A stretch of 64,000 nt of DNA from Escherichia phage FL23. The stretch lies in sequence record PP400787; one strand, given 5' to 3'. The notes under the pieces were generated by a model. The model was given only the letters and a program-made list of their open reading frames with translations. It was not told where the DNA came from and ran no database searches. The position numbers and the translations under genes are program-made. Of this stretch, positions 20,913 through 61,951 are shown piece by piece; within the stretch, counting starts at the first letter, position 1; each line of letters starts with the position of its first letter.

Positions 20913-21530
20913 TTATGCCTTACTAAATTTGCCTTTAGAATCTCTTTTCATGAGACGACCTTTAATAAATCCGTCGGGAATAATACCGTCTGGTTGTATT
21001 AATTTATTTATTGCGCCATTATTGACCCAAAAAGTTCCTGTGGTAGTCGGTTTGACTTTACATCCTTTTCTGGACTTTCTATTAGGATGAACCATCCCTT
21101 TTACAAATCCTTCTGGAACAAGTTCTCCAGGCTTAATAAAAATATTTTTAGTTCCATTAGTGTAACAAGTTGTACCTAATACCGTGCCCGGTGAGTTTTC
21201 AAATCTCTTAGCGGAAGATTCTTTCATCTTTGCTATAACCTCTGTAGTCATAACAATTCCACCAATTCCGCCAGGTTTCATATTATAATAATTTTTGCTT
21301 TTTATTATTTCAGAAGTTATAATTTCTTCTTCATACATGTACGCTTCTTCGGAAGTTTTAAACTCTTTTAGTATTGTTCTAGAGAAATTGTTTTCACCAT
21401 ATTTCTTTATGGCCTGCTGAATTGCCTTACCGGAACCAAGGTAACCATCATTCAAGTCATCAGTAGAGTGTTTTCCTATATACTTTTTACCATTTATTAG
21501 ATTTGTTGTTTCATATACAAAGTGGTACAT
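20913..21530 (-). CDS. segD: GIY-YIG homing endonuclease SegD
   Basis: N-terminal GIY-YIG module (KYIGKHS...YLGSGK); C-terminal IPDGFIKGR DNA-binding-type motif shared with SegB; located between uvsW and inh as in T4. Confidence 0.85.
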   Translation of the reverse strand: MYHFVYETTNLINGKKYIGKHSTDDLNDGYLGSGKAIQQAIKKYGENNFSRTILKEFKTSEEAYMYEEEIITSEIIKSKNYYNMKPGGIGGIVMTTEVIAKMKESSAKRFENSPGTVLGTTCYTNGTKNIFIKPGELVPEGFVKGMVHPNRKSRKGCKVKPTTTGTFWVNNGAINKLIQPDGIIPDGFIKGRLMKRDSKGKFSKA

Positions 21531-54337: not shown

Positions 54338-54911
54338 AAGATTTCTCCATTATACGTATAAGGTCGTTCATAAATGAATTGATGTCTGATTTTGCTATTA
54401 TTTTTATTTGACGAAGTTTTTCATTTTCAAGAACAGCAGCTTCATACGTATCGACCGCAGCAAGTGCTCCTTCATATTGAGGATATTTTCTAGCTTTATC
54501 GCCTTTGTCATACCAAACATATGGATTATCATCGTATGATATTAAATTATAAAATTTTTCACCGTTCTCATTCACATGATATACTATTTGGTCTCCACCT
54601 ACGTTTTTGTATTTTTGTATAGATGCTTGATAAGCAGCTTCTTGCGAAGTAATCCATCCATAATACGGATCATAATTATCATTACACATCAATAAAACCC
54701 AATACAACTGCGGATTTCCATATATAGTATTTGCTAATTCTTCCGGGCGTGGTGAACCTTTGATATAATAAGTACGTAAGCGGTATCCCGCAAGAGCGCG
54801 TTTAAAATAGTCTTTATAGTTTCTAAAAATATCTGTCATAGGAATAGTCGGCGCGTTTTTATTCACCGTTTTGGCCGCATATTCAATCGGATCAAAAAAT
54901 GTAAAGAGCAT
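54321..54911 (-). CDS. 53: baseplate wedge protein gp53
   Basis: 196 aa as in T4 gp53; late promoter at 54940-54947; AGGAGG SD. Confidence 0.88.
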   Translation of the reverse strand: MLFTFFDPIEYAAKTVNKNAPTIPMTDIFRNYKDYFKRALAGYRLRTYYIKGSPRPEELANTIYGNPQLYWVLLMCNDNYDPYYGWITSQEAAYQASIQKYKNVGGDQIVYHVNENGEKFYNLISYDDNPYVWYDKGDKARKYPQYEGALAAVDTYEAAVLENEKLRQIKIIAKSDINSFMNDLIRIMEKSYGNDK

Positions 54912-54924
54912 GGGCCCTCCTGTT

Positions 54925-54947
54925 TATAAATATATTATCTATTTATA
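54925..54947. promoter_or_regulatory. divergent late promoters for gene 4 (+) and gene 53 (-)
   Basis: TATAAATA on the plus strand at 54925-54932 (AAGGAG SD, gene 4 ATG 54959) and on the minus strand at 54940-54947 (AGGAGG SD, gene 53 ATG 54911). Confidence 0.6.
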
Positions 54948-54958
54948 AGGAGAATCCA

Positions 54959-55411
54959 ATGGCATATTCTGGAAAATGGGTTCCTAAAAATATATCAAAA
55001 TATAGAGGTGACCCTAAAAAAATTACGTATAGATCAAATTGGGAAAAATTCTTTTTTGAATGGTTAGATAAAAATCCAGAAATTATTGCATGGGGTAGTG
55101 AAACAGCAGTAATTCCTTATTTTTGTAATGCAGAAGGGAAAAAACGTAGATACTTCATGGATATTTGGATGAAAGATTCTTCTGGACAAGAATTTTTTAT
55201 TGAAATAAAACCTAAAAAAGAAACACAACCACCAGTTAAACCAGCACATCTAACAACCGCAGCGAAGAAAAGATTTATGAATGAAATTTATACATATTCT
55301 GTTAATACCGACAAATGGAAAGCAGCGCAAGCTTTAGCTGAAAAGCGTGGAATAAAATTTAGAATTCTGACAGAAGATGGATTACGAGCTCTTGGCTTTA
55401 AGGGGGCATAA
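54959..55411 (+). CDS. 4: head completion protein gp4
   Basis: 150 aa as in T4 gp4; late promoter at 54925-54932; AAGGAG SD. Confidence 0.9.
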
Positions 55412-56238
55412 TGGCTATTTTTCAAATAATTAATGAAAGCACTCCCCAAGTTCCAAAGGTTAAGCAATCATTAAACGAAAAGAAATGGATTCAGATAGGT
55501 CTTGAATATAAAAAGGCCAAAGCAAAAGGAATGACAGGAAAGCAATTTGCTGAAGAAAGAGGAATCAAATACTCTACGTTTACTTCAGCAATGTCAAAAT
55601 ATGCTTCAGGAATTAAAACGGCTGAAAAGATTCAAAAGCTTGAATCAAAACCAATGAATAAACTCAATAAGCAAGAAAGACAACTGCTTATGATAAATTC
55701 ATTCAGACAAACATTGCGCGATAAAATTCGTAATGAAGGTGCAGCAATTAATAATAAAACCAGAAAATGGTTTGCTGAAACTATTAAGCAAGTAAAAGGA
55801 CATAAAGTTGTTCGCCCGCAACCGGGACGAATATATGCTTTTGCTTATGACGCTAAACACAAGGAAACTCTTCCTTACTGGGATAAATTTCCTTTGATAA
55901 TTTACCTTGGCTTAGGTAAGCATAACTTAATGTACGGATTAAACTTGCACTATATTCCACCTAAAGCTCGTCAGCAATTCCTAGAAGAGCTTTTAAAGCA
56001 ATATGCAAATACACCTACTATTACTAATAAAACGAAATTAAAAATTGATTGGAGTCAAGTGAAAGGATTTAGGGGTGCAGACCAAATGATTAAGGCATAT
56101 ATACCTGGTAATATTATGGGTAGCCTTGTTGAAATCGCCCCGAAAGACTGGGCGAACGTTGTGTTAATGCCACTCCAAAGCTTCTACTCAAAAGGAAAAC
56201 GTTTCTCTGCAAACAAAGTTTGGAGCAATGTACGATGA
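55411..56238 (+). CDS. 2: DNA end-protector protein gp2
   Basis: 275 aa; TAATG coupling with gene 4; synteny. Confidence 0.88.
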
Positions 56239-56893
56239 ATTATGAAAAAATTTATAATTCACTAATTGATAGGGCTCGCAATAGAGCCCTTACTGGATAT
56301 AAAGAAAGACATCATATTATTCCGAAATGTTTAGGCGGTAGTAATGATGCTTCTAACTTGGTTGATTTAACTCCAGAAGAGCATTATGTTGCACATCAGC
56401 TATTAGTAAAAATCACCCAAATTCTTTAAAATTATCTTATGCAGCCATAAAAATGACGGTTTCAACTAAATATGTTAGGAGAAATAATAAAGTTTATGGT
56501 TGGTTAAAAAGAAAACATGCAAATAATATTTCAAATACACAAACTGGACGAAAATATTATAATAATGGTAAAAGATGTATAAAATTGCATGATGGAGATA
56601 TAATTCCTGAGGGATTTATTTTAGGAAGAGGATGGAGTCCGACACAAGGAACAACTCATTCTAGAAAAAATGACACATTTAAAAACAAAAAGCTTCAATC
56701 TGCTTTAGCTAATAAACGGTGGGAAAAAGAAAAGAAAATAATGTTAGATAACTTTGGAGTTAACACTATTGATGAAGCAAAGAAAATTGTTCTTGATTTT
56801 AAATCAACTTGTCATCTAAGATATTGGCGAAAGCCAACTTTAGAAAAATTTCCATTTATGACTTCTGCTCGTTTAAGAAGTCTAATAAATTAA
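56235..56893 (+). pseudogene. HNH homing endonuclease gene split by a frameshift (N-terminal HNH ORF 56235-56429; C-terminal ORF 56453-56893, whose frame is open from 56366)
   Basis: N-terminal ORF has HNH motif HHIIPKCLGG...NLV.LTPEEHYVAH and ends after ...QLLVKITQIL; downstream frame continues ...KNHPNSLKL...NGKRCIKLHDGDIIPEGFILGRGW, a C-terminal motif shared with SegB/SegD. The frames meet at an A5 run (56408-56412). Confidence 0.6.
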
Positions 56894-56999
56894 TTCTATT
56901 ATCTTCCATTCTTTTCTGTTGTTTGTTCTAAATGGAATTGAATGGAAGGGACTTAGACCCATTATACCACCAACATTTATAAAGCATTATGAGGAATAT

Positions 57000-57530
57000 A
57001 TGTCGCAAGCACTGCAACAAATTTTTAACCAAGCAAATACAACTAACTTTGTAGTATCAATACCACATAGTAATACTACATCTGCTTTTACTTTAAATGC
57101 TCAGTCAGTTCCTATTCCAGGAATTAGAATACCTGTTACTGATACCGTGACTGGGCCGTTTGGACTGGGCCGAGCACAACGTCCAGGTGCTACATTTGAG
57201 TACGATCCACTCATCGTGAGATTTATAGTTGATGAAGAACTTAAGTCATGGATAGGAATGTATGAATGGATGCTAGGAACTAGCAACTATCTTACAGGTG
57301 AAAATACTGCCCAAAAAACAGGTCCTGAATACATTACGCTTTACATTTTAGATAATAGCAAAACTGAAATCGTGATGTCAATAAATTTTTATAAGCCTTG
57401 GGTTTCTGACCTGTCTGAAGTAGAATTTAGCTATACGGAAGATTCAGACCCGGCTTTAGTATGTACAGCAACGATTCCTTATACGTATTTTCAAGTAGAA
57501 AAAGATGGAAAAATTATAGCGGAAGTTTAA
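57000..57530 (+). CDS. 3: tail completion / sheath terminator protein gp3
   Basis: Track start 56919 is TTG; ATG at 57000 with GAGGAA SD gives 176 aa, the T4 gp3 length as I recall it. Confidence 0.85.
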   Translation: MSQALQQIFNQANTTNFVVSIPHSNTTSAFTLNAQSVPIPGIRIPVTDTVTGPFGLGRAQRPGATFEYDPLIVRFIVDEELKSWIGMYEWMLGTSNYLTGENTAQKTGPEYITLYILDNSKTEIVMSINFYKPWVSDLSEVEFSYTEDSDPALVCTATIPYTYFQVEKDGKIIAEV

Positions 57531-57554
57531 TGCTTCAGTTTCATGTGTTATAAT
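57531..57554 (+). promoter_or_regulatory. middle (MotA box) / early-type promoter for gene 1
   Basis: MotA box TGCTTCA (57531-57537), 11-nt spacer, extended -10 TGtTATAAT (57546-57554). Confidence 0.5.
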
Positions 57555-57579
57555 CTTAACTAAATTTGAGGAGAAACAT

Positions 57580-58304
57580 ATGAAACTAATCTTTTTAAGC
57601 GGTGTAAAGCGTAGTGGAAAAGATACTACTGCTGATTTTATCATGAGCAATTATTCTGCAGTTAAATACCAACTTGCTGGTCCTATTAAGGATGCATTGG
57701 CTTATGCATGGGGAGTATTTGCAGCAAATACCGACTATCCTTGCTTAACTCGTAAAGAGTTTGAAGGAATTGACTATGATCGTGAGACTAATTTAAATCT
57801 AACTAAATTAGAAGTAATCACGATTATGGAACAAGCATTTTGCTATCTTAATGGTAAAAGCCCAATTAAAGGTGTGTTTGTTTTTGATGACGAAGGACAA
57901 GAATCAGTTAATTCCGTAGCATTTAACAAGATTATTGACGTTATAAATAATATTGAAGATCAATGGTCAGTCCGTCGTCTGATGCAAGCCCTAGGTACGG
58001 ATTTGATTGTTAATAACTTCGACCGCATGTACTGGGTAAAATTATTTGCTTTAGATTATCTTGATAAATTTAACTCAGGTTATGATTATTATATCGTTCC
58101 TGATACTCGTCAAGATCATGAAATGGATGCGGCTAGGGCGATGGGTGCTACAGTAATTCATGTAGTTCGTCCTGGTCAAAAATCCAATGATACACATATT
58201 ACAGAAGCTGGATTGCCAATTCGTGATGGCGATTTAGTAATTACAAACGATGGTTCTCTTGAAGAACTTTTTTCTAAAATTAAAAATACACTAAAGGTAC
58301 TATA

Positions 58305-58305
<1 letters not shown>
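57580..58305 (+). CDS. 1: deoxynucleoside monophosphate kinase gp1
   Basis: 241 aa; P-loop GVKRSGKDT; matches T4 gp1 from memory; GAGGAG SD. Confidence 0.95.
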
Positions 58306-59002
<697 letters not shown>

Positions 59003-61285: not shown

Positions 61286-61951
61286 ATGTTCCATTACATT
61301 TATAAAATAACAAATAAAATTAATAATAAAATCTATATAGGCGCTCATTCTACCGAAAATTTAGATGATGGATATATGGGTTCTGGTAAATTATTAAAAA
61401 GAGCCCAAGATAAGTATGGTATAGAAAATTTTTCTAAAGAAATATTAGAGTTCTTTGACGATAAAACCTCTATGTTTGAGTCAGAAAAGAATATTGTGAC
61501 TGAAGAGTTTTTAAAGCACCCTGATGTTTATAATTTGAAATTAGGTGGTGAAGGTGGTTGGGACCATTTAAACACTAAAGAATATTTGGATAAAAAGAAA
61601 GAAGCTTCCTTAAAAGGAGCTGCCGCTTTTAAAACCAGATTTGAGAACGACCCAGACCTTAAAGAAAAATATCGTAAAATGGGTTCAGAAAGGTTTAAAC
61701 AGCTTTGGGATAATCCTAAGTATAGAGAGAAATTTTTAAATACTAAATCTTTCTTGGGTAAGACCCATACTCCTGAAACTATTAATAAAATGAAAGAATC
61801 TCACGCTAAAAATAATCACCAGAAAGGTGAAAAGAATTCCCAATTTGGTATGATGTGGATTCATTCATTAGATGAAAAAGTTTCTAAACGTATTAAGAAA
61901 ACTGACCCAATTCCAGAAGGATGGTTTAAAGGTCGAAAAATGAAATTTTAA
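61286..61951 (+). CDS. segB: GIY-YIG homing endonuclease SegB
   Basis: N-terminal GIY-YIG module (KIYIGAHS...YMGSGK); 221 aa; inserted between tRNA-Ile and tRNA-Arg as in T4; AGGAGA SD. Confidence 0.85.
   Translation: MFHYIYKITNKINNKIYIGAHSTENLDDGYMGSGKLLKRAQDKYGIENFSKEILEFFDDKTSMFESEKNIVTEEFLKHPDVYNLKLGGEGGWDHLNTKEYLDKKKEASLKGAAAFKTRFENDPDLKEKYRKMGSERFKQLWDNPKYREKFLNTKSFLGKTHTPETINKMKESHAKNNHQKGEKNSQFGMMWIHSLDEKVSKRIKKTDPIPEGWFKGRKMKF

Follow-up and report, generated by a model that had tools for sequence, protein, structure and literature searches.

A Mob-like HNH homing endonuclease gene between genes 2 and 3 of a Tequatrovirus, probably inactivated recently by a single-base deletion

The analyzed stretch of DNA, 64,000 nt long and referred to as the window, harbors between the phage genes 2 and 3 a homing endonuclease gene (HEG) that is divided into two short open reading frames. 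In a megablast search of 50,697 phage records, the window positions 56100-57000 gave a 100% match to phage FL44 (PP400790.1), a Tequatrovirus from pig faeces in Denmark, and the window corresponds to the reverse complement of approximately 62944-126943 in the FL44 record, in which both short ORFs carry the annotation "homing endonuclease". The locus is composed of the following features:

54925..54932, plus strand: TATAAATA, a match to the late-promoter consensus of T4, in front of gene 4
54959-55411, plus strand: gene 4
55411..56238, plus strand: gene 2, encoding gp2 (DNA end protector, 275 aa)
56222..56225, plus strand: GGAG, Shine-Dalgarno-like, 9 nt before the ATG of the HEG
56224..56890, plus strand: HEG cassette of 667 nt, as defined by the empty sites in T4, ASO78A and vB_SsoM_113
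56235..56429, plus strand: ORF of the N-terminal fragment (64 aa), from ATG 56235 to the stop TAA 56427-56429
56408..56412, plus strand: A5 run AAAAA, intact and the same in all relatives compared
56413..56414, plus strand: site of the 1-nt deletion; T-A-C in relatives (codon 60 ATA, Ile), T-C in the window
56453..56893, plus strand: ORF of the C-terminal fragment (146 aa; residues 74-219 in the intact form)
56894..56999, plus strand: spacer of 106 nt between genes 2 and 3, 3' of the HEG and near-identical to the T4 spacer
57000..57530, plus strand: gene 3, encoding gp3 (tail completion / tail-tube tip, 176 aa)
57580-58305, plus strand: gene 1, followed by gene 57A

Upstream of this gene group, gene 53 is located on the opposite strand. 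The late-promoter consensus has one match only in the region 54800-57200, namely the one in front of gene 4, which is the likely source of a late transcript reading over genes 4, 2 and the HEG; late co-transcription of the HEG and its translational coupling to gp2 are therefore likely.

The comparison of the gene 2/gene 3 junction with insert-free relatives, which the preliminary description had proposed, gave sharp edges for the cassette (56224-56890). In T4, ASO78A and vB_SsoM_113, gene 2 ends with ...AAA GTC TGG TCA AAT AT(C/T) TAA, which is followed by the 106-nt spacer and gene 3. Within the last codons of gene 2, the cassette stands in place of 9 nt (TCAAATATC/T), and homology resumes at TAA 56891-93, the ancestral stop codon of gene 2 that now serves as stop codon of the HEG. 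Thereby the end of gp2 is recoded: positions 56224-56238 read AGC AAT GTA CGA TGA (SNVR*), whereas T4 has TCA AAT ATC (SNI) and then the retained TAA. As can be read from the sequence, the GGAG motif arises at the left junction itself (TGG/AGC), where T4 has TGGTCA, and the ATG of the HEG overlaps the gene 2 stop codon (ATGA). No Rfam family, group I introns included, matched the region 55000-57800 at E<=1, so the HEG locus is not an intron. This null result together with the ATGA overlap bears out the earlier view of a free-standing, intron-less gene between genes 2 and 3.

The affiliation of the gene to the HNH homing endonucleases, likewise claimed before, is supported. The intact form of the protein matches PHROG 655 ("homing endonuclease") with an E value of 1e-58 and the N-terminal fragment with 7e-38, while the Pfam scores stay below the gathering thresholds, at 17.8-20.2 bits for HNH_5 (gathering cut-off 27.5) and 16.5-18.6 bits for HNH (cut-off 21.4). 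The tblastn comparison with the mob genes of T4 revealed similarity over residues 1-114 at five places of the T4 genome (45% identity, E 2e-22), and further matches are situated beside nrdA, which is the mobE position. The AlphaFold2 model of the intact protein has a mean pLDDT of 90.1 and predicts a beta-beta-alpha core consisting of the strands 24-27 and 42-45 and the helix 47-60; it is accompanied by a helix at 3-16, helices at 65-73 and 89-103, a less confident linker and four C-terminal helices, and residues 107-130 form a small sheet that corresponds to the YYNNG...PEGFILGR module. Searching the PDB by sequence gave nothing close (5ukh at E 0.28, which is chance-level), and the fold search with Foldseek returned HNH domains as best matches, all of them weak (E >= 0.59, i.e. 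about 0.6), and did not recover I-HmuI.

The 64-aa ORF carries HHIIPKCLGGSNDASNLVDLTPEEHYVAH and, as had been described, an intact HNH motif with all its residues (H26, H27, N41, H50, H54). Its residues 1-59 are 100% identical to RB32 ORF146c, after which it ends in the out-of-frame tail (I)TQIL*. The downstream frame is open from 56366, after a TGA at 56363-65, and its earliest ATG, GTG or TTG codon is ATG 56453. The resulting 146-aa ORF bears the beta-hairpin module YYNNGKRCIKLHDGDIIPEGFILGR and the C-terminal helical region, and the corresponding residues 74-219 are 99.3% identical to RB32 ORF146c. All of the positions given previously for this arrangement, i.e. the stop codon 56427-56429, the opening of the second frame at 56366, the ATG at 56453 and the A5 run at 56408-56412, were confirmed in the sequence.

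Among 503 records sharing the flanking regions, 36 carry the gene, one (CT01) has a remnant and approximately 466, including T4, are without the gene. The 35 other carriers (for example RB32 with ORF146c, RB33 and D5505) are all one base longer at the site of the split. In 33 of them the gene is an uninterrupted ORF of 660 nt encoding 219 aa that is mostly annotated as a single CDS, and in the carrier CE1 it measures 657 nt after an in-frame deletion of 3 nt. A query of 91 bases over the site was 100% identical only to FL44, and 92 bases were aligned in 35/35 other carriers. In the alignment with RB32, D5505, Manna and CE1, the relatives read GTAAAAATACACCC and the window GTAAAAAT-CACCC or, if the whole A run is included, AAAAATACACC versus AAAAAT-CACC. 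In codons, the intact GTA AAA ATA CAC CCA (V K I H P) is opposed to GTAAAAAT-CACCCA in the window, and the window allele across the deletion, AAAAATCACC, is opposed to ATACACC. Codon 60 (ATA to AT) has thus lost its second A, the base following T56413, and this T separates the site from the A5 run. The deletion moves reading to the +1 frame, and therefore the C-terminal part is found in the -1 frame relative to the N-terminal part. The four relatives also share a C at position 56817 (plus strand), at which the window has a private change to T (CCA to CTA, P195L).

These alignments modify the preliminary description in two respects. A one-base frameshift does split the gene as had been stated; however, the lost base adjoins the A5 run and is not part of it, which rules out homopolymer slippage as the origin of the lesion. 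Similarly, one extra base in or beside the run would fuse the frames as suggested, and the fused protein has 219 aa instead of approximately 210 aa.

One might argue that the phage possesses an intact 660-nt gene and that one base was dropped beside an A-rich stretch during sequencing or assembly. The lesion is indeed a single-base indel adjoining the A5 run and is confined to the FL44/FL23 lineage, and the two phages, which were processed by one laboratory with one pipeline, may be near-clonal. However, FL44 was sequenced on Illumina MiSeq (2x250) with de novo assembly (PMC12032242). The indel error of this platform is low, and the deletion removed a single A flanked by T and C, where no homopolymer exists. 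The DNA of FL23 was outside the phage collection searched, and its comparison relates to the protein products only; by exact look-up the same 64-aa and 146-aa products, P195L included, were found to be deposited for FL23 too, i.e. lesion and substitution occur together in two separately deposited genomes. Moreover, a scan for non-triplet indels against the carrier APTC-EC-2A found, over the 64 kb, no isolated indel that breaks the frame of a conserved ORF except the one at position 56414, which speaks against an error-prone assembly in general. The other non-triplet indels represent compensated pairs in divergent segments, indels in intergenic or tRNA regions and one cluster at 2807-2838. Collectively, these data make a sequencing or assembly error, including an artefact shared by FL44 and FL23, an unlikely source of the split, and the earlier option of a homopolymer error has lost ground with the base outside the homopolymer, the Illumina data and the same split in FL23. 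As a side aspect of the scan, the cluster at 2807-2838 comprises three single-base indels in a small ORF (2695-2901) of the rIII region; this region is annotated in three fragments in APTC-EC-2A, and the errors probably lie in that record and not in the window.

A broader comparison shows a single reading frame over the site of the lesion. A search of 5.8 billion proteins found 2,933 relatives, and 30 homologues at 39-64% identity were aligned. All 30 are unbroken over the site (...HQLLVKI(H/Y)P...L.(F/Y)AA..M...). The HNH residues H26, H27, N41, H50 and H54 are invariant in these proteins, as are P62, L67 and A70; K59, A71 and M74 are near-invariant, and position 60 is hydrophobic throughout. 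In the AlphaFold2 model, the break falls where the helix 47-60 of the beta-beta-alpha core ends, and the helices 65-73 and 89-103 still belong to the well-ordered N-terminal domain. The homology to the T4 Mob proteins covers residues 1-114, and therefore the break is inside the conserved nuclease domain and not at a domain boundary. The previous assumption of a nuclease part separated from a DNA-binding part is thus right insofar as the two ORFs are N- and C-terminal parts of one 219-aa protein, and it fails regarding the place of the break.

It could be imagined that the 64-aa and 146-aa fragments are made separately and reassemble into a functional two-piece enzyme or fulfil separate functions. 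In this regard, the N-terminal fragment keeps all HNH residues, and the C-terminal fragment keeps the entire Seg-like beta-hairpin module as well as the C-terminal helices. However, residues 60-73, with the invariant P62, L67 and A70, are out of frame in the 64-aa ORF and upstream of any start codon in the 146-aa ORF, hence they are absent from both products. Furthermore, the break occurs inside the domain common to the T4 Mob proteins, and a two-piece arrangement exists in no relative, because 35 near-identical relatives and 30 diverse homologues are continuous. The start Met of the downstream ORF is M74, a near-invariant internal residue of the intact protein, so the 146-aa ORF is without an N-terminus of its own; two separate proteins in relatives or an independent conserved N-terminus downstream had been named beforehand as what would refute the split-gene view, and neither was found. 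Reading of the sequence found no Shine-Dalgarno-like motif before ATG 56453. A weak hairpin predicted at 56444-56500 (plus strand) pairs the region of this ATG with 56493-56500 and would cover the start codon; it is not significant (z -1.19), and if it is real, independent initiation of the 146-aa ORF would drop further. A functional enzyme in two pieces is hence extremely unlikely.

A further alternative is recoding, in which a -1 slip of tRNA-Lys on A-AAA-A (56408-56412) or slippage of the RNA polymerase regularly restores the frame, so that a functional full-length I60N endonuclease would still be made, possibly at an attenuated, less toxic level. The C-terminal part is in the -1 frame, the two frames overlap by 64 nt (56366-56429), and the A AAA A context is placed exactly two codons before the lesion. 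Several observations stand against this. The two-frame layout is not conserved, since 35/35 close relatives and the 30 distant homologues are in frame. The heptamer A-AAA-AUC does not follow the canonical X XXY YYZ pattern, and with GUA AAA AUC in the zero frame, re-pairing of the P-site tRNA-Lys would be the only possibility. The slip product LLVK-N-HPNSL... would have Asn as residue 60, where 30/30 homologues have a hydrophobic residue, and an A5 run is too short for efficient transcriptional slippage. A stimulatory RNA structure was looked for and rejected, because the minimum free energy fold (-14 kcal/mol) starts approximately 30 nt downstream, outside the spacing of 5-9 nt, and is not significant (z -1.19, 28 of 200 shuffled sequences were as good). 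The dnaX-type -1 sites (A AAA AAG plus stimulators) resemble the window in the A-rich, slippery-looking sequence and the downstream ORF in the -1 frame; unlike them, the window is without a canonical heptamer, a stimulatory Shine-Dalgarno sequence or hairpin and a conserved frameshift, and its ancestral state is in frame.

Programmed frameshifting is therefore not supported, and we consider regular recoding very unlikely; the slippage site that had been listed among the options is weakened likewise, as no stimulatory structure was found and the deletion is located outside the homopolymer. A trace of the full-length I60N protein could nevertheless arise from -1 slippage at a low level on A-AAA-A. 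It is a long shot that the frameshifted allele is not dead and that slippage keeps the element mobile in an attenuated, less toxic form, i.e. as a naturally arisen "leaky switch". In a variant of this reading, a free 146-aa DNA-binding fragment may bind the gene 2/3 target and modulate the homing of related endonucleases in mixed infections.

The favoured explanation, to which we assign a probability of about 0.85, is that a Mob-like, free-standing HNH homing endonuclease gene, inserted in the 3' end of gene 2, was recently inactivated by a real 1-nt deletion in codon 60. Judged from its sequence, the window copy is almost certainly inactive, a pseudogene of the Mob-type family and not a working member. 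The option of a decaying mobile element, which the preliminary description had also offered, is supported by the 35 carriers with intact frame at the site, the position of the deletion outside the homopolymer and the same products in FL23.

Other genomes with the element show different states of the same locus. In Salmonella phage Manna (PP987310), the HEG stop codon is lost and the right junction reads ...AGAAGTCAAATATCTAATTC with the T4-type gene 2 end (approximately window 56883-57000). The Manna ORF (locus 436-1501) thereby stays open over the 106-nt spacer and reaches gp3 in the same frame; its annotation is that of a hypothetical protein of 431 aa. Shigella phage CT01 (OK018184) has an in-frame internal deletion of 486 nt (approximately window 56275-56760) that leaves a remnant of 57 aa (locus 736-909; .../VSTIDEAKK...) without HNH motif and beta-hairpin module; from its sequence, this is the same element at a more advanced stage of decay. 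FL44/FL23, CT01 and Manna fit into the homing endonuclease cycle of invasion, degeneration and loss. In the protein databases, the HNH protein shares its 90%-identity cluster with gp3 tail-completion proteins and with entries named "phage tail protein, partial [Enterococcus faecalis]"; the mixed cluster has probably been chained by read-through fusions such as that of Manna, and contaminating phage contigs are the probable source of the Enterococcus entries.

Homologues at the same gene 2/3 junction were also detected outside this genus. They exist as single ORFs in the Dhakavirus QL01 (61.5% identity, locus 1201-1851) and in the Acinetobacter Lazarusvirus Konradin (54% identity, locus 1201-1869), which belong to other genera and another subfamily. 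One lineage thus occupies the gene 2/3 site in three genera of Straboviridae. Konradin has another homing endonuclease gene upstream of gene 2. In total, approximately 115 records contain homologues of full length.

Regarding the target of the enzyme, a cluster of substitutions at the 3' end of gene 2 deserves attention. It is situated at window 56175-56190, 35-50 nt upstream of the insertion, where the window reads CCAAAGCTTCTACTC and T4 TCAGCAGTTCGTTTC, resulting in QSFY versus QQFV in gp2. The cluster is present in every HEG-bearing copy and in some 13-17 HEG-less genomes (vB_SsoM_113, T4_ev151, EC128, FL12 and others), in which the junctions are otherwise empty. From this pattern, the cluster may be a candidate recognition or cleavage target, an immunity region, a co-conversion tract or the trace of a precise HEG loss. 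An island of raised identity around the HEG was also considered as a sign of recent co-conversion; FL44 and another carrier are 99-100% identical over approximately 56000-58400, and similar blocks exist elsewhere, hence this comparison was uninformative.

The C-terminal part of the HNH protein has a short module in common with endonucleases of a different type. The motif ..NGKRCIKLHDGDIIPEGFILGR.. recurs in the Seg proteins of the window, as had been noticed from the sequence. The GIY-YIG Seg-like ORF at 20913-21530 (minus strand, 205 aa) contains two tandem copies of x-NG-x(n)-P(E/D)GF-x-KGR, which match the C-terminal part of the HNH protein in BLASTP at E 0.001 and 0.018. The segment 20907-21543 is missing from APTC-EC-2A, so it represents another homing endonuclease gene with presence/absence distribution. 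In the tRNA region, a SegB-like GIY-YIG endonuclease (61286-61951, plus strand, 221 aa) has the C-terminus ...DPIPEGWFKGRKMKF (...DPIPEGWFKGR), which is the same short module. Both GIY-YIG ORFs belong to the homing endonucleases of PHROG 314.

How such an element would behave can be outlined by analogy to MobE and MobA of T4. The intact 219-aa enzyme would be made late in infection in translational coupling to gp2, and its targets would be co-infecting genomes without the HEG, which it would nick or cut in the vicinity of the gene 2/3 junction, after which the HEG would be copied in by recombinational repair. In FL44 and FL23, the deletion in codon 60 stops translation after 64 residues and leaves the 146-aa remainder without a ribosome-binding site of its own, and the element is regarded as an early-stage pseudogene in the cycle of invasion, fixation, decay and loss. 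Because it lies between essential genes, the element is probably carried passively.

MobE of T4 has been shown to be active (PMC2790892), and the family MobA-E has been reviewed (PMC2988022). The element shares with the T4 Mob family the N-terminal HNH domain, a distinct and presumably DNA-binding C-terminus, the intergenic, intron-less site and the patchy distribution; it differs by its site between genes 2 and 3, which is empty in T4, by a C-terminal region with the GIY-YIG Seg module, and by the frameshift of the window copy. RB32 ORF146c is alike in locus, flanks and sequence, whereas the window copy has the 1-nt deletion in codon 60 and P195L and is split into 64 aa and 146 aa. Two mob-like genes have been counted in RB32 (PMC2993671), and a literature search found no paper on activity or homing of the RB32 ORF146c lineage. 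Carrier records name it "putative site-specific intron-like DNA endonuclease", and the RB32 entry bears the remark "similar to mobB; not conserved from T4 position". A comparable case of decay is I-TevIII, the HNH endonuclease of the nrdB intron of T4, which is truncated by a deletion and intact in RB3 (PMC2988022). Both examples represent an HNH endonuclease gene that is dead in one phage and has intact orthologues in close relatives, i.e. a decay series; however, I-TevIII is intron-encoded and was affected by a large deletion, whereas the window element is free-standing and its single-base frameshift marks an earlier stage.

The element is already known and annotated, and its decay is ordinary. 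The useful outcomes of the present analysis are the corrected position of the lesion, a better annotation and a documented range of decay states for a single locus. The pair of CDSs annotated as "homing endonuclease" in FL44 and FL23 should become one pseudogene. Beyond the correct annotation the finding has little significance, apart from the gene 2/3 lineage in three genera of Straboviridae and the natural decay series, which includes at one locus the empty state (T4), the intact gene (RB32 and others), the frameshift (FL44/FL23), the stop-loss into gp3 (Manna) and the large in-frame deletion (CT01). This series could be used to study how the homing cycle of phages passes through decay and could help to map the target of a Mob-like enzyme.
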